Virus record (IMG/VR): IMGVR_UViG_3300033143_001219
Coordinates: 1 to 64,000 of that record
Origin: a virus
DNA: 64,000 nt
Direction: 5' to 3' (one strand)
The translations under genes and the position numbers were made by a program. This document shows positions 1 to 10,997 of the stretch, in pieces (position 1 is the stretch's first letter; each line of letters opens with the position of its first letter). Below the pieces are notes generated by a model. It did no database searches, was not told where the DNA came from, and saw only the letters and a list, made by a program, of their open reading frames with translations.

Positions 1-31
1 TAATCTGGTTCGATTCCAGTTATAATCACCA
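1..31 (+). tRNA. 3' end of a tRNA truncated by the window edge
   Basis: T-arm CTGG-TTCGATT-CCAG followed by acceptor strand and CCA. Confidence 0.75.
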
Positions 32-37
32 AACAAT

Positions 38-113
38 GGTTAGTAAGCTTAGATGGTCGAAGCGTCTGCCTCTAAAACAGAATAGCTGGGCTCGTTTCCC
101 AGACTAACCACCA
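38..113 (+). tRNA. tRNA with CUA anticodon (amber suppressor-type)
   Basis: Acceptor GGTTAGT/ACTAACC+A+CCA; D-stem GCTT/AAGC; anticodon arm TCTGC-CTCTAAA-ACAGA (CTA at 72-74); T-stem CTGGG/CCCAG with atypical loop CTCGTTT. Confidence 0.8.
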
Positions 114-134
114 TTTTAAAGGAGAATATAGGAA

Positions 135-218
135 ATGAAAAGAACATAGACTCATGATCCACCTTGGGATATTGTGCTAATAATAAACTATTATATCAAT
201 ATAAACAAGGAGAATTAA
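135..218 (+). CDS. Putative leader peptide with in-frame amber: MKRT(UAG)THDPPWDIVLIINYYININKEN
   Basis: GGAG/AGGA SD upstream, ATG at 135, TAG at 147-149, frame open to TAA 216-218, 1 nt before ATG 220; not in ORF track. Confidence 0.55.
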
Positions 219-219
219 A

Positions 220-537
220 ATGAAAACTGAAGAAGAAAAGAAAGAATATAAAGAAATTAAGCGTGCTTGGGCACGTTCAGTAAATAATGAAGAATACAAG
301 CCATATAAAGACGAATATGGTACAAAATATGAGGGAAAACTTAATGCTTTGCACTTTTTAGTGTATAACATTGTAAGAGGATTTCCTCAATCACGCGGAT
401 TTGAACCTTTGGGACAAGGATATGAGAAGGCGGTAGCGGACTTAAACATGCTTATAAAGTTTGAGAGGGAAGCGAAGCTCTTATTTCCATTTGATAACCT
501 GATAACCTTAGAAACATTTAAGGAGTTAGTAAAATGA
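220..537 (+). CDS. Hypothetical protein (HFLVYNIVRG motif), coupled to Pth2-like gene
   Basis: AAGGAG SD, ATGA overlap with next gene. Confidence 0.8.
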   Translation: MKTEEEKKEYKEIKRAWARSVNNEEYKPYKDEYGTKYEGKLNALHFLVYNIVRGFPQSRGFEPLGQGYEKAVADLNMLIKFEREAKLLFPFDNLITLETFKELVK

Positions 538-845
538 CCCCTTACATGTATATAGTTGTTAGAACCGATCTAAGAAAGGAATTCCAATTAGTTCAAGCCT
601 GTCATGCGGCCATAGAGTCTGCATTCACGTTTGATAGACCAGATGATATCATACATTTAGTAGTGTTACAAGTAGCTAATAAACAGGAACTTGCAGAAGT
701 TGCCCTCCAACTATATAATGAAGGAAAACCTTACGAGGAGTTCTTTGAGAGCTGGGGTAACTTACAAAATACTGCATTAGCAACTAAACCAATTACTAAA
801 CAAAAGGAGGGAGTGCTTTCTAAGTTATCCCTCCTTACTTATTAA
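534..845 (+). CDS. Peptidyl-tRNA hydrolase (Pth2-like) protein
   Basis: MYIVVRTDL...QACHAA motif, ~100 aa, typical of the PTH2 fold. Confidence 0.7.
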   Translation: MTPYMYIVVRTDLRKEFQLVQACHAAIESAFTFDRPDDIIHLVVLQVANKQELAEVALQLYNEGKPYEEFFESWGNLQNTALATKPITKQKEGVLSKLSLLTY

Positions 846-846
846 T

Positions 847-920
847 ATACCCGTAGTTCAATGGTAGATCACACGGCTTTCAACCGTCAGATGCGGGTTC
901 AACTCCCGTCGGGTATACCA
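847..920 (+). tRNA. tRNA-Glu(TTC)
   Basis: Cloverleaf, loop CTTTCAA, CCA encoded. Confidence 0.9.
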
Positions 921-1048
921 GTATTTCCCACCTACCAATGAGTAGAAAGGGGTATCCGCATTATCCGGACTATAATAGATGACCATAAAGGCCGTACTTG
1001 CCCGTCTGACGAAATGTACATCAGCCTCGATTGAACTCGGGGTTTTTT

Positions 1049-1124
1049 AGCTCCGTGGTGAAGTGGCAAACACATCTGGTTTTGATCCAGACATTCGTAG
1101 GTTCGAGTCCTACCGGAGCCGCCA
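1049..1124 (+). tRNA. tRNA-Gln(TTG)
   Basis: TCTGG-TTTTGAT-CCAGA arm, GTTCGAG T-loop, CCA. Confidence 0.9.
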
Positions 1125-1132
1125 AACAATAT

Positions 1133-1205
1133 GCCCCGGCCAGCGGAAGGGATCTAGGCTACGAACCTAGTTAATTTGTGAGTTCGACTCTCACTCGGGG
1201 TTCCA
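1133..1205 (+). tRNA. tRNA-Arg(ACG), reduced D-arm
   Basis: CTAGG-CTACGAA-CCTAG arm, T-arm, CCA. Confidence 0.85.
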
Positions 1206-1211
1206 AATAAT

Positions 1212-1298
1212 GGTAGATGCCGGCCAGTGGAGGCCGCCCAGTCTTGAAAACTGGTGGTGACCGTGAGGTTAGGGGTTCAACTCCTCCATCTACTTCCA
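1212..1298 (+). tRNA. tRNA-Ser(TGA)
   Basis: CCAGT-CTTGAAA-ACTGG, long variable arm, CCA. Confidence 0.9.
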
Positions 1299-1306
1299 AA
1301 CATAAT

Positions 1307-1381
1307 GGTGACGTAGCTAACAGGTAAAGCAATATCTTCATAAGGTACGAAATAAGGGTTCAATTCCCTTCGTCACTACCA
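1307..1381 (+). tRNA. tRNA with CAT anticodon (Met or Ile2)
   Basis: Loop TTCATAA, acceptor GGTGACG/CGTCACT, CCA. Confidence 0.85.
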
Positions 1382-1396
1382 AATATAGGAAACAAT

Positions 1397-1570
1397 ATGA
1401 TATGTCCAGTATGTGACATGGGGGTATTAGAGCCTTTTACGGATGAAAAAGGTTTACGATATAATATATGTGATGCTTGTGGTAGTGAAATAGCAACACC
1501 ACATGACTTACGATATAATAAAGCTAAATTTTTAGCTAAGAGGGATAAAGATGGAAACAAGAAATGGTAA
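1397..1570 (+). CDS. 57-aa zinc-ribbon protein resembling the MqsA/YgiT antitoxin N-terminal domain
   Basis: Hand-translated MICPVCDMG...YNICDACGSEIATPHDLRYNKAKF; AGGA SD; below ORF-track cutoff. Confidence 0.7.
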   Translation: MICPVCDMGVLEPFTDEKGLRYNICDACGSEIATPHDLRYNKAKFLAKRDKDGNKKW

Positions 1571-1778
1571 TGGTGACGTACTTAGTAATGAAGTATTTGA
1601 AGAGAAGAAAGAAATAACAGAAGCTTTTGAAAAAGCTATGGATAATGTAGAAGTTAAAACAATTAAAATTACTAAAGATATTCCTATGACCGAAGAGCGT
1701 AGAAGAACAGTAGAAAAGAAACTTAGACGTACATTATTAAAAGCCGCTGAACTAGAGCGAGAAATAAAAGAAGGATAA
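1551..1778 (+). CDS. Hypothetical protein
   Basis: ORF with GAGG SD. Confidence 0.7.
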   Translation: METRNGNGDVLSNEVFEEKKEITEAFEKAMDNVEVKTIKITKDIPMTEERRRTVEKKLRRTLLKAAELEREIKEG

Positions 1779-1780
1779 TT

Positions 1781-1869
1781 GGAAGGTTGGCAGAACGGTA
1801 ATGCAGTAGTTTGCTAAACTATACAACCTGAGAATGGTTGAGTGGGTTCGACTCCCACACTTTCCACCA
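1781..1869 (+). tRNA. tRNA-Ser(GCT)
   Basis: GTAGT-TTGCTAA-ACTAT, long variable arm, CCA. Confidence 0.9.
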
Positions 1870-1875
1870 AATACT

Positions 1876-2139
1876 ATGATTAAAACATTAAAAGATAACT
1901 TAGGTGCAACAATGAATTTAGTGGGTTTAATTACAGCATCTTTTGCTGTACTAATATACTTACAAGCAAACTTTGTACAAGCAGCAGACTTTAAAGATTT
2001 TAAAGTACAAGACTGGGAAGACCAAATTTATAAGTTAGCAATCAAAGAAAACAGATTAGCTGAAGAGGGTAAAGTTCTGAAACCAGAAGAAAAAGCCTAC
2101 TTGGAAATGCTTAAGGCTAGATTAGCTAAAGAAAAATAA
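1876..2139 (+). CDS. Small membrane protein
   Basis: Start moved to ATG after the tRNA; one hydrophobic helix. Confidence 0.65.
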   Translation: MIKTLKDNLGATMNLVGLITASFAVLIYLQANFVQAADFKDFKVQDWEDQIYKLAIKENRLAEEGKVLKPEEKAYLEMLKARLAKEK

Positions 2140-2142
2140 TAG

Positions 2143-2171
2143 TTGACATAGAGGTTATATTTTAGTATAAT
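2143..2171 (+). promoter_or_regulatory. Sigma70 promoter
   Basis: TTGACA-17-TATAAT with A-rich UP element. Confidence 0.85.
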
Positions 2172-2177
2172 ATGTTT

Positions 2178-2402
2178 ATGAAATCAGAAAAGCCAAAAAT
2201 TACAGAAATGTTTGATAAACTACCTAAAGTAATATCAAGCTGTAAGACAGAAATGCAATTAGCATATGCACAAAGATATGCACACTTAGCCTATAGACTA
2301 TATATAGATTCTAGAGTTCTGCGTATACTTGGTGATCAGTTACTAAGTAACAAAAGAGAAAAATTAATTAATGCTCCGGTGGTGGAACGGCATACACGCT
2401 AG
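2178..2402 (+). CDS. Hypothetical protein (possibly leaderless; 3' end overlaps tRNA-Leu)
   Basis: ATG 7 nt after -10 box. Confidence 0.6.
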   Translation: MKSEKPKITEMFDKLPKVISSCKTEMQLAYAQRYAHLAYRLYIDSRVLRILGDQLLSNKREKLINAPVVERHTR

Positions 2403-2458
2403 GTTTAGGTTCTAGTGCCTTAATCGGTATGAGGGTTCGAGTCCCTCTCGGAGTACCA
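2373..2458 (+). tRNA. tRNA-Leu(TAG)
   Basis: CTAGG-TTTAGGT-TCTAG, long variable arm, CCA. Confidence 0.9.
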
Positions 2459-2463
2459 AATTT

Positions 2464-2538
2464 GGGGACGTGGTGATAACGGGAACACGCCGCGCTTGCA
2501 ACGCGGAAATGAGGGTTCGATTCCCTCTGTCTCCACCA
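2464..2538 (+). tRNA. tRNA-Ala(TGC)
   Basis: CCGCG-CTTGCAA-CGCGG, G3:U70, CCA. Confidence 0.92.
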
Positions 2539-2673
2539 AATTAAAGATGCTAGACGATAACCCGCTACAGTCTGTGTGAGGCAGACCATCAATTTGATAT
2601 GTATTTAAATATAAAAATTCGTGCATGGCTAAAGAGCCCTAATGTTTTTAAGTACATATCAAATTTTAACAAT

Positions 2674-2748
2674 GCTGGGTAGGCCGATTGGCGAGGCGTT
2701 AGTTTTACATACTAATAGTATACGGTTCGATTCCGTGACCCAGTACCA
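2674..2748 (+). tRNA. tRNA-Val(TAC)
   Basis: TTAGT-TTTACAT-ACTAA, CCA. Confidence 0.88.
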
Positions 2749-2766
2749 ACTTATAGGAATAGAACA

Positions 2767-3579
2767 ATGTTTATCAGAGCAGTATCAGACCTACACCTAG
2801 AATTTAGCTATGGTGATGTGCGTTTGAATGAATTACCTACAGATAAAGATACAGTTCTTATTCTAGCAGGTGATATTGGCATAGCCAGTAAGCCACATAC
2901 TTATTTGAAGTTTTTTGAAGATAAAGCTAATCGCTTTCGCGATGTTATTTATATCTTGGGAAACCATGAGCATTACAAAGGTAGTTTTACTAAGTCTAAA
3001 AATAGAATTAAAGATACTCTAGCAGAATTCGTAAATGTTTCCGTTATTGAGAAAGAAACTATTGTTATAGATGGTGTAGCTTTTGTAGGTGCAACCTTAT
3101 GGACAGATATGAATCATCATGACTGCTTATGTATGAATAATTCTCAACTAATGATGAGTGATTATAGTAGTATCCGATTCGGACCTACTGCTGAGCCTTG
3201 GAAGTTTAATCTTAAGCCAGTTAATACGGTAGAAGACCATATTAATGCAAAGCATTATATCTTTAAAGAAATTAAAAAGCAAAAGGATGTGGGAAACAAA
3301 GTAGTAGTTATTAGTCATCATTTGCCAAGTTACTTATCTTTAGCACAGGAGTTCAAAGGTGATACATCAGGAGGTTCATTAAATGGCGCATACGCTTCAG
3401 AGTTATTTGAAGATATTATGGATACGCAGCCTAATATTTGGATTCATGGTCATACCCATAGCTCTTTTGATTATAAGATTGGTGATACAAACGTTATTTG
3501 CAATCCAAGAGGATACTTCACATTAGGTGGAAACTACTTAAACTTAGATTTTAATGAGGAGTTATTATTAAATGTGTAA
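2767..3579 (+). CDS. Calcineurin-like metallophosphoesterase
   Basis: DLH, AGD, GNHE, HH, HGHTH motifs. Confidence 0.9.
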   Translation: MFIRAVSDLHLEFSYGDVRLNELPTDKDTVLILAGDIGIASKPHTYLKFFEDKANRFRDVIYILGNHEHYKGSFTKSKNRIKDTLAEFVNVSVIEKETIVIDGVAFVGATLWTDMNHHDCLCMNNSQLMMSDYSSIRFGPTAEPWKFNLKPVNTVEDHINAKHYIFKEIKKQKDVGNKVVVISHHLPSYLSLAQEFKGDTSGGSLNGAYASELFEDIMDTQPNIWIHGHTHSSFDYKIGDTNVICNPRGYFTLGGNYLNLDFNEELLLNV

Positions 3580-3739
3580 ACTATTATATATTGTAAAATT
3601 TTGTACTAAAAGTCAGGTTTATGATAATAAACCTGACAGGCACTTTTATAATGAAAAGAAAGCTTATAGTTTAGTAGATGAATATAGAACTAATGATTAT
3701 CATTGGGCTACACTACATACAATTCAACCTGAGGAATAA
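3572..3739 (+). CDS. Small hypothetical protein (55 aa)
   Basis: GAGGAG SD, hand-translated MCKLLYIVKF... Confidence 0.55.
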   Translation: MCKLLYIVKFCTKSQVYDNKPDRHFYNEKKAYSLVDEYRTNDYHWATLHTIQPEE

Positions 3740-4074: not shown

Positions 4075-4145
4075 ATCGGTGATGCTGGGACTGGCAGAGG
4101 TCTCCAAAACCTTAGTAGGGGGTTCGATTCCCTCCACCGGTGCCA
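4075..4145 (+). tRNA. tRNA-Trp(CCA), reduced D-arm
   Basis: AGGT-CTCCAAA-ACCT, CCA. Confidence 0.85.
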
Positions 4146-9381: not shown

Positions 9382-10443
9382 ATGAAAAAATTAATTATAT
9401 TACTAGCTATGCTAGTATCTACTAGTATTCACGCCACTAATTTTGAGCCTCCCGTTGAGGCAGAACTTAATGATGAAGGTGTCAGAACGTATTTAGTAGA
9501 AGATTTTAATGGTAAGGGTGTTAACGATTTAATGGTATCAGACCTATCAGGTTCTGTACGTGTTTATTTAGGCGAAGACCTTGAATCAGGATTATTTAAT
9601 GATAGTCGTGGTATTCCAAATACCAGTATACTAAATAATAACTTAGTTGTCAATGCACTAGCTAGCACAGATTTTGATAATGATGGTGACTTAGATTTAG
9701 CATTAGGTTCTTTTTTCTGTGAAAACTCATTAATTCATTTTGCAGTAATGTTAAATGATGGTAAAGCTAGATTCACTCCCGCACCTTGTGTAGGACCACA
9801 GGATGGTAGATTTACTTATCTTGAAACAGGTGTTGTTGATATTGAAGCAGGTGATTTAAACAGTGACGGTAACGCAGATTTATTAGTTGCTACATTTGGC
9901 GAAGATATTGGTGTATATTCTTATCTTGGTAATGGTGATGGTACTTTTAGTAACAGAGTTCTTGTTTATAAACCTAGAACTACGGCTTTTAGCCCTAAAA
10001 ATTTAACTATTATTGATGTTAATATGGATGGTGCAGTTGATATTATAATTCATACAGGTCTATATTCCCCAAATGAAACTTTATTGTTTGTTGGGAATGG
10101 AGCTGGTGACTTTATACAAACTGCTTGGAATCAAGTTGTACCTGTTGAAGCACCTGAATTCCCAGAAGTTCAAGCTATCGCAGACGCATGGCCAACGGAT
10201 TATTTAATAGATGCACATATCGTTGATGACTTCACAGGCAATGGCCTAGGTGATATTATTACTTTATATACACCAGCAGGTTTAAATACGGGTGCAATTT
10301 TATATGTACAATCCGGAGGGGTAGCAATTCCAACAGATCCAGTAAAGACTAAAGAAGTAGATCCTATTGAAGTTGAAGAAGTAGAACCAGAAGAAGTAGA
10401 AGAAGTTGAAATTGAAGAAATTGAGCCTGAAGAGGTTCAATAG
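9382..10443 (+). CDS. Secreted FG-GAP/VCBS repeat protein with acidic tail (tandem paralog)
   Basis: Colinear with the previous gene; same motifs. Confidence 0.85.
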   Translation: MKKLIILLAMLVSTSIHATNFEPPVEAELNDEGVRTYLVEDFNGKGVNDLMVSDLSGSVRVYLGEDLESGLFNDSRGIPNTSILNNNLVVNALASTDFDNDGDLDLALGSFFCENSLIHFAVMLNDGKARFTPAPCVGPQDGRFTYLETGVVDIEAGDLNSDGNADLLVATFGEDIGVYSYLGNGDGTFSNRVLVYKPRTTAFSPKNLTIIDVNMDGAVDIIIHTGLYSPNETLLFVGNGAGDFIQTAWNQVVPVEAPEFPEVQAIADAWPTDYLIDAHIVDDFTGNGLGDIITLYTPAGLNTGAILYVQSGGVAIPTDPVKTKEVDPIEVEEVEPEEVEEVEIEEIEPEEVQ

Positions 10444-10857
10444 TATTATTGTATGATGTTAATGATAGAGTTATAAGACGCGGGTTCGATTCCCGCCAGC
10501 TCCACCACAAGTATTCTCTAACAAGGTAGCATATTGTTCAGAATATGTTGCGTTAGACAGATATAAATAGTACCTTTAAGCTGAAACCTTATAAAAGCAT
10601 TGGGATTTGAAAACCTCGGTATGTTGGTACTTCATTACTAGAGTGCATAACCTAGTATAGTGTAAGATATTTGAGAATACTTTTGATGGGGCTGCCATGG
10701 CTTCGATTGTAATTGGATAATTAATTGACAATACGTTATCAGACGTAATCTGGTATAAAATAATTGCAAACGATAATGACTTCGCAATGGCTGCCTAATC
10801 TTTAAATAGATTAGAGTAAGCATGGGTTTGGGCTACCTTGAAACAGAAAGCCCACTA
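10443..10857 (+). ncRNA. ssrA: Circularly permuted two-piece tmRNA (acceptor piece ~10443-10507; coding piece from 10688; tag ANDNDFAMAA at 10766-10798)
   Basis: GCGGGTTCGATTCCCGCCAGCTCCACCA precedes GGGGCTG...TTCGA; G3:U70; resume context ATAATT-GCA; tag ends AA-stop. Confidence 0.9.
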
Positions 10858-10862
10858 ATTAT

Positions 10863-10997
10863 GGATGGAGCATGTAGTCATGCATCCTGAGAGTGCTGCA
10901 CAATTTACTATTGATAAGTAAGGGTTGTAAGCTGGGATACTTGCGATGTTATCAGCATTTAGAAAGTAGAAGTCACAGACGGTCTTCCCATCCACCA
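10863..10997 (+). ncRNA. Putative CCA-terminated, tRNA-like stable RNA (~135 nt)
   Basis: GGATGG/CCATCC+A+CCA closing stem with internal hairpins. Confidence 0.55.

Follow-up and report, generated by a model that had tools for sequence, protein, structure and literature searches.

Leader peptides control bacterial genes by attenuation in systems such as ermC and cat, SecM, MifM and the ApdA/ApdP leaders with their RAPP or RGPP motifs, in which the signal is an antibiotic, secretion or membrane insertion. In prfB, which encodes release factor 2, an early in-frame UGA and a +1 frameshift serve to sense the gene's own product, and phages recoded to genetic code 15 or 4, crAss-like and Lak phages among them, override a host stop codon with a phage-encoded CUA or UCA tRNA on which some of their genes depend. 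The bar minigenes of phage lambda are two-codon open reading frames (ORFs) that poison cells limited for peptidyl-tRNA hydrolase (Pth) by drop-off. Here we analyse a locus at the start of a 64,000-nucleotide virus sequence (IMG/VR record IMGVR_UViG_3300033143_001219, positions 1 to 64,000; hereafter the window) in which a tRNA gene with a CUA anticodon is followed by a short leader ORF with an in-frame amber codon and by two overlapping genes, ORF220 and a gene for a Pth2-like protein. Comparison with related loci suggests that translation of these two genes depends on the phage's own CUA tRNA reading through the leader UAG, an interpretation to which we assign a probability of roughly 60%.

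The targets of the two CUA tRNAs of phage XacN1 could not be identified (PMC5852040), and the suppressor of Ralstonia phage RsoM2USA was reported without a target (PMC8504454). The locus described here and its relatives name a concrete, conserved target for the CUA suppressors of jumbo phages, and the question becomes testable.

A CUA tRNA beside an amber-interrupted leader

Three relatives of the leader locus were read: a 59-kb IMG/VR contig (L011), one cold-seep or marine-sediment contig, and a 1.1-kb contig from the Joint Genome Institute (L012). The window locus comprises the following elements, among them the Shine–Dalgarno (SD) sequences of the leader and of ORF220 and two strands that pair in minimum-free-energy (MFE) folds:

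38..113, + strand: amber-suppressor-type tRNA, anticodon CUA, with encoded CCA (111-113); Rfam RF00005
119..124, + strand: SD sequence AAGGAG of the leader ORF; AAGGAG in L011, AGGAG in L012
135..149, + strand: leader ORF to its in-frame amber, ATG 135 AAA AGA ACA TAG 147-149 (M K R T UAG); TAG kept in relatives
150..218, + strand: read-through part, 22 codons (THDPPWDIVL...) and then TAA 216-218
152..166, + strand: predicted anti-SD and anti-AUG strand, UCAUGAUCCACCUUG, holding the Pro-Pro codons 159-164; from MFE folds and duplex energy
206..223, + strand: SD (207-212) and start codon (220-222) of ORF220, the predicted 3' strand of the hairpin; from folds, with 206-227 identical in L011
220..537, + strand: ORF220, a conserved 105-residue protein of no known family or fold; from homologues and an AlphaFold2 (AF2) model
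534..845, + strand: Pth2-like (peptidyl-tRNA-hydrolase-fold) protein of 103 residues, with an ATGA overlap with ORF220; from Pfam PF01981 and an AF2 model

The layout described in the initial annotation is borne out by the sequence. The leader ATG lies 21 nt from the CCA end of the tRNA and belongs to an SD-led mini-ORF; beyond TAG 147-149 the frame continues through ACT CAT GAT CCA CCT TGG and stays open for 22 codons up to TAA 216-218, and ATG 220 follows one base later. Scanning the whole contig for an SD and start followed by up to 15 codons, a TAG and at least 20 further open codons returned 16 rows, mostly with TTG or GTG starts or lying inside longer ORFs. By our reading the leader at 135-149 is the only clear intergenic case among them, one odd look-alike aside.

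The tRNA matches RF00005 over positions 38-110 with 49.5 bits (cut-off 29), a full-length match to model positions 1-71. The Rfam alignment places CUCUAAA as a 7-nt anticodon loop, giving anticodon CUA with U33 and A37, in agreement with the anticodon first assigned to this gene; the discriminator is A73 and the variable arm is short. The tRNA is 100% identical in L011, where the flanking proteins are 70-82% identical and the spacer behind the tRNA diverges.

We asked whether a CUA tRNA might be explained by the genetic code of the phage. The single virus contig to which the window belongs is 81,105 bp long, with 34% G+C; the window covers its first 64 kb and opens with a + strand array of about 20 tRNA genes plus a permuted transfer-messenger RNA (tmRNA). 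Coding density of the 81-kb contig is 87% under table 11, and TAG terminates 10 of its 84 long ORFs (12%), with the next stop 1-17 codons on in each case. Reading TAG as sense lengthens the total ORF length from 21,746 to 25,764 amino acids, and reading TGA as sense brings it to 26,009. The earlier view that the rest of the window uses the standard code is thus upheld, and neither the table 11 density nor the TAG-ended ORFs of the 81-kb contig indicate genome-wide recoding of TAG (code 15). The contig being in standard code, the CUA tRNA is unexplained by recoding within these 81 kb, and we rejected genome recoding for the contig on its table 11 density and its tightly packed TAG-ended genes.

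A narrower form of the recoding idea holds that the tRNA serves late genes with TAG as a sense codon in an unsampled part of the genome, the leader being a real 27-residue protein with one recoded codon. The genome is incomplete, because the contig starts inside a tRNA-like element and lacks a terminal repeat, and completeness of the 59-kb relative is put at 53%; phages that combine recoding with a CUA tRNA are common, and TAA is the strongly preferred stop here, as reported for relatives of recoded phages. We nevertheless regard this account as very improbable. The 81 kb sampled, at 87% coding under table 11, include genes of structural size, and the ten TAG-ended genes are tightly packed; the peptide after the TAG is not conserved past ten residues in close relatives and is wholly different in L012; and lab-grown phages with a standard code carry the same gate.

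Conservation of the stop and its putative decoder across relatives supports the gating idea. Scans with the ORF220 family found only L012 in metagenomes and only L011 among viral contigs, with no match among genome contigs. In L011, whose two proteins are 70% and 82% identical to those of the window, the tRNA and the 37 bases 5' of it are unchanged, and the leader begins ATG AAG AGT ACT GAA ACA ATA (MKSTETI-TAG), seven codons against four, a 9-nt in-frame difference in length. Thirty bases at 146-175 (A TAG ACT CAT GAT CCA CCT TGG GAT ATT GT) are then identical; positions 176-205 vary, with compensating 1-nt indels that hold the total length; and the 22 bases at 206-227 (CAAGGAGAATTAAAATGAAAAC) are again identical. 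The cold-seep or sediment contig has ATG AAG GTT ACA GAT AAC (MKVTDN) and then TAG in frame, with compensating indels at 184 and 201. L012 is more distant, with proteins 55-58% identical (58% for the ORF220 match and 56% for its Pth2-like protein, P0038). This contig opens with a CUA tRNA whose sequence is unrelated (51 bits; mismatch A31.C39), after which AGGAG and six bases precede the leader ATG ATT GGT GGA TTG CCT GGC GGT GAT TAG ACT TTA ACA TAG ATA CGT GCT CCT CCT TAA. This reads MIGGLPGGD-TAG with a second TAG downstream and ends I-R-A-P-P-stop on the anti-SD; 47 bases then separate the leader TAA from the next SD and the ATG of the ORF220 homologue, which likewise overlaps a Pth2-like gene.

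Across these loci the codons before the TAG vary in sequence and number (MKRT, MKSTETI, MKVTDN, MIGGLPGGD), and the in-frame TAG is constant. The initial annotation had asked whether an M-x(3)-TAG-x(2)-DPP motif and its linkage to CUA tRNAs are conserved. The in-frame TAG and the CUA tRNA do recur in L011 and L012, whereas the M-x(3) spacing gives way to four to nine codons before the TAG, and DPP is replaced by RAPP in L012. Three further elements of that early model lack support, one of them the link to GNAT toxins. A lambda-bar-like minigene drop-off sits poorly with a pre-TAG part of 4, 6, 7 or 9 codons that is not conserved, and coupling at TAA-A-ATG is unlikely to be the core of the design, the run being kept in the window, L011 and apparently one contig and missing in L012, where the leader stops on the anti-SD 47 nt ahead of the next ATG.

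Between the window and L011, the degenerate leader codons for T-H-D-P-P-D-I are unchanged in seven of seven cases, compared with 61-64% of same-residue codons in the two genes. Such a pattern indicates constraint at the level of the RNA, either in addition to the peptide or in its place, and two identical strands around a variable apex with indels fit an RNA helix. Nucleotide-level conservation would also fit an ordinary or untranslated upstream ORF that ends in TAG, in which case 146-175 with 206-227 would form an RNA element for mRNA stability, processing of the tRNA transcript or constitutive damping of ORF220, and the adjacency of the CUA tRNA would be accidental. Within a dense array of about 20 tRNAs some tRNA always adjoins, and the weak z-scores of the leader folds also suit this account. 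Four features make it unlikely in our view: both lineages have a CUA tRNA next to the leader, although the tRNA sequences are unrelated; TAG ends only 12% of the contig's long ORFs yet is present in every leader seen, twice in L012; a properly spaced SD and an ATG persist although the intervening codons change in frame; and the match of stop to anticodon recurs across the Pth2-like family, including TGA with UCA.

A predicted anti-SD hairpin and the proposed switch

All three leaders (window, L011 and L012) have MFE folds in which the Pro-Pro codons that follow the TAG are paired to the SD of ORF220. The core helix of the window and L011 joins CCUUG 162-166 to CAAGG 206-210, and an imperfect extension brings UCAUGAU 152-158 together with the AUG region (214-223); the L012 helix joins CUCCU to AGGAG and CGU to ACG. 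The predicted duplex energies, -8.1 kcal/mol in the window and -10.5 kcal/mol in the L012 lineage, are reached by 2.6% and 0.9%, respectively, of random genomic 21-mers against the same targets.

These observations suggest a switch that is set by the decoding of the leader stop. In the off state, ribosomes would start at ATG 135 and, without an active suppressor, release factor 1 (RF1) would release them at UAG 147-149, while the hairpin of 152-166 with 206-223 would hide the SD and AUG of ORF220 and leave ORF220 and the Pth2-like gene poorly translated. Release at the first UAG would leave the core helix closed; a ribosome reading on would sit on the anti-SD. In the on state, the CUA tRNA would be made and charged and would beat RF1, and ribosomes would enter the Asp-Pro-Pro-Trp codons. 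Because these codons are the anti-SD strand, ribosomes passing over them or pausing there would open the hairpin, making the start of ORF220 accessible. In the window phage a ribosome may also run to TAA 216-218 and restart at ATG 220, and the Pth2-like gene would follow ORF220 through ATGA coupling, tying the output of the operon to suppressor-tRNA activity. The read-through switch of the initial annotation keeps its core, gating by read-through, which is supported by conservation of the TAG and the tRNA in relatives and by matched stops at codon 3-5 across the family; bar-type drop-off and the TAA-A-ATG junction as its centre are not supported.

The Pro-Pro codons have two possible roles, pairing and pausing, and the second could carry the regulation. 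On a stalling account, close to that of the initial annotation, the hairpin is minor: read-through would bring the ribosome to a strong stall site (D-P-P-W, or R-A-P-P in L012), and its lasting arrest there, sensitive to elongation factor P (EF-P) or to ribosome stress, would hold the ORF220 start open in the manner of SecM, MifM and RAPP leaders. Pro-Pro follows the TAG in both lineages, and L012 has an exact RAPP directly ahead of its stop. Arrest at RAPP and RGPP is robust and is not relieved by EF-P (PMC12992588), and DPP and PPW are among the strong proline pause motifs (PMC4739656). DPPW, however, is neither RAPP nor RGPP, and EF-P normally relieves such motifs in cells. The CCN CCN codons are also needed for the anti-SD pairing, so that Pro-Pro could be a by-product, and the nascent chain in the window and L011 has just 8-11 residues, short for tunnel-dependent arrest. 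Stalling as the principal mechanism is possible, although we hold it doubtful.

Several points weigh against the read-through switch itself. The leader form was read in only two independent lineages, one comprising the window, L011 and cold-seep contigs and the other L012. The complete folds have only modest z-scores (-1.0 to -2.2), and in the window just 5 bp, with imperfect extensions, make up the core helix. A ribosome at UAG 147 covers the RNA to about 159-162 and would open the outer helix, so that the off state may be leaky. The window leader has a rather long SD-to-ATG spacing of 10 nt, against 7 nt in L011 and 6 nt in L012. In the tRNA, a mismatch (C31.A39) closes the anticodon loop and the T-loop, CUCGUUU, is unusual; ARAGORN gives no call for this tRNA, probably on account of these two features. 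Its part as a putative UAG decoder presupposes charging, which we infer; it has no close paralogue among the phage's other tRNAs, and similarity to them gave no amino-acid identity. Finally, recoded genes could sit in the part of the genome beyond the 81-kb contig. A pseudogene reading of the tRNA, prompted by the ARAGORN rejection, was dropped on its Rfam score and perfect conservation.

Early in-frame stops of Pth2-like genes in other phages

The assignment of the second gene to the Pth2 family, and its ATGA overlap with ORF220, are both confirmed. The protein scores 27.0 bits against Pfam PTH2 (PF01981; cut-off 23) over residues 5-91, and its family profile matches the solved Pth chain 24bt_A with an E value of 1.3e-5. 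Its AF2 model has a predicted local distance difference test (pLDDT) score of 89, and the top 12 Foldseek matches are all Pth2/Bit1 proteins, archaeal and human ones included, with probability 1.0 and template modelling (TM) scores of 0.67-0.76. VQxCHA, E28, E72 and T80 are invariant in the family; compared with 2zv3, the loop ahead of the QxxHA helix is short by two residues and has no GKGK. ORF220 is likewise modelled with a pLDDT of 89; it has no Pfam or PHROG family, no Foldseek match to solved folds and nothing usable from the protein atlas, and its best VIA-align Z is only 3.7. Homologues of both proteins, 19 for ORF220 (50-100% identity) and 21 for the Pth2-like protein, lie nearly all on short metagenome contigs. 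Among GenBank phages there is no ORF220 homologue and no near DNA match to positions 1-3600.

Matches to the Pth2-like protein were returned by tblastn from 34 GenBank phage records and 10 viral contigs. Their DNA shows that the Pth2-like gene itself very often starts as SD-ATG-x(1-4)-stop with the frame continuing beyond the stop, an arrangement present in ten or more further phage lineages, lab-grown phages among them. The early-stop starts are:

MT-TAG: L002
MGFS-TAG: L007
MK-TGA: L006
MSH-TAG: Yersinia phage fHe-Yen9-04
MTH-TAG: Serratia phage BF and LR756511
MAQ-TAG: Pectobacterium phage CBB and Cronobacter phage GAP32
ML-TAG: Ralstonia phage RsoM2USA
MT-TAG: Acinetobacter phage ME3

A suppressor tRNA that matches the stop lies nearby in every case examined. 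It has a CUA anticodon in L002, L007, ME3 and GAP32, and RsoM2USA carries a CUA suppressor tRNA (PMC8504454). In L006 a UCA tRNA lies 250 nt 5' of the TGA-gated gene, and 40 kb taken from another part of this phage's record read in the standard code. No early stop is present in the Pth2-like gene of RaK2, L005, L008-L010 or the Xanthomonas/Stenotrophomonas group; in L008-L010 a CUA tRNA lies just 3' of the gene, and in the Xanthomonas/Stenotrophomonas group the Pth2-like domain is fused to a longer protein.

In the GenBank records of the lab-grown jumbo phages fHe-Yen9-04, BF, RsoM2USA, CBB, GAP32 and ME3 the gated gene either is unannotated (L019, L025 and L029) or has a truncated coding sequence with a late start (L027, L028 and L022), because the TAG stands at codon 3-4. 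Gene callers thus routinely miss or truncate such genes in deposited phage genomes. GAP32 also has a canonical, annotated PTH2 (GAP32_382; L031:13205-13633) besides its TAG-gated short Pth2-like gene, which makes the gated gene a diverged paralogue and not the phage's sole Pth2.

A further arrangement occurs in two viral contigs of 73% G+C (L003:2862-3100 and L004:646-880), in which ATG, GTG and TTG are all missing from the frame of the Pth2-like gene. Immediately 5' lies a tRNA with an 8-nt anticodon loop, AC-UUCA-AA, and an SD-led mini-ORF reads ATG TCC GGG TTT ACG TGA A; taking UGAA as one four-base step leads into the Pth2 frame.

Taken across the family, the data raise the somewhat less than even prospect that standard-code phages use orphan suppressor tRNAs as the input of a switch, with a stop matched to the anticodon placed at the start of the Pth2-like gene, on an anti-SD leader or, in L003 and L004, as a four-base codon. 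The enzyme would then be made only during non-standard decoding, and its targets would by implication be the products of such decoding or the suppressor tRNA. A role in peptidyl-tRNA recycling or in the rescue of read-through products is possible; our guess is that it provides clean-up or feedback, either on peptidyl- or aminoacyl-tRNA arising from suppression or on the suppressor tRNA itself.

The anticodon arm of the window's CUA tRNA is found more widely. The 18-nt arm GUCUGC-CUCUAAA-ACAGA, C31.A39 mismatch included, recurs in otherwise different CUA tRNAs of jumbo phages (L014-L018, 125-373 kb), and the CUA tRNA of L012 (L012:1-74) bears the mirrored A31.C39. Judging from these sequences, selection may favour a mismatch at the 31-39 pair in such suppressors.

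Other elements of the contig include the following:

1..31, + strand: 3' end of a tRNA-like element (T-arm, acceptor strand and CCA), cut by the contig start; from sequence, identical in L011

This element sits 6 nt 5' of the suppressor tRNA and is the same in both phages. Its full copy, at about 2729-2801 of L011, has a good acceptor stem, T-arm and CCA around an aberrant body and receives no Rfam tRNA call, even at E 10. ARAGORN misses two more tRNA-like genes on the + strand, at window positions 4075-4145 and 1132-1206; one is a Trp(CCA) tRNA (Rfam, 34 bits), and the other has a perfect 5-bp anticodon stem, the loop CUACGAA (Arg ACG) and an odd D-arm, with no Rfam call. A two-piece permuted tmRNA at 10402-10889 on the + strand (Rfam tmRNA_permuted, 108.9 bits; alpha_tmRNA, 61.3 bits) has the tag peptide ANDNDFAMAA according to ARAGORN, and this ribosome-rescue RNA shares the early region with the suppressor tRNA and the Pth2-like gene. 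The look-alike of the leader lies on the minus strand at about 77275-77396 of the contig (L030:13275-13396), in a G+C-rich intergenic stretch that reads AAAGGAGACT ATG GTA GGG GGC GGT TAT TAG ACT CAG TCT AAC CCT CCC .... It shares with the leader ATG-5 codons-TAG ACT CA and a C-rich, anti-SD-like tract, and it has no Rfam match, no fold signal (z +0.35) and no phage match.

Comparison with known systems

The initial annotation knew of no described system with this layout, and for the literature searchable in full text this holds: we found no description of a stop-gated Pth2-like gene, in its in-gene form, or of the leader, and surveys of recoded phages do not mention a link to the hydrolase. 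If the proposed switch is real, it would be a natural one that takes stop-codon read-through as its input, a signal that no leader is known to sense. It would also tie a diverged enzyme of the Pth2 fold to suppressor tRNAs, a hint that tRNA quality control in infected cells includes a step not yet described, and would offer tRNA and leader together as a compact natural part for the synthetic gating of expression.

The amber-gated Pth2-like genes of GAP32, CBB, BF, fHe-Yen9-04, ME3 and RsoM2USA share with the window locus the enzyme family, the pairing with a suppressor and the order SD-ATG-few codons-stop. In the window the gate has moved to a separate leader with a predicted anti-SD hairpin, and ORF220 stands between the gate and the Pth2-like gene. 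Recoded phages resemble this locus in that a phage tRNA overrides a host stop and some genes depend on it; here, by contrast, the code is standard over 81 kb and one tiny leader carries the stop, which would make it a single regulatory target. What the bar minigenes have in common with this locus is a very small ORF led by an SD and an association with peptidyl-tRNA hydrolase, whereas the leaders described here have four to nine variable codons, a stop that always matches the neighbouring tRNA, and an open frame beyond it. The parallel with prfB lies in an early in-frame stop that senses termination against alternative decoding and sets an output of the translation-factor type; in place of the frameshift, the present locus would use plain read-through by a dedicated tRNA on a separate leader.

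Leader attenuation offers the nearest likeness in architecture. In the window, L011 and L012 alike, a short ORF with its own SD precedes ORF220 or its homologue, and the predicted hairpin hides the next SD with one of its strands inside the leader, such that a ribosome held there would open the start. L012 even has the R-A-P-P of the arrest leaders; the D-P-P-W of the window and L011 belongs to the pause motifs of the EF-P class and is neither RAPP nor RGPP. The differences lie in the signal, which would here be read-through of a stop by a suppressor tRNA encoded next to the leader, and in the gated product, a tRNA-hydrolase-like enzyme. On this reading the locus is a form of leader-peptide attenuation whose input would be read-through by a suppressor tRNA.

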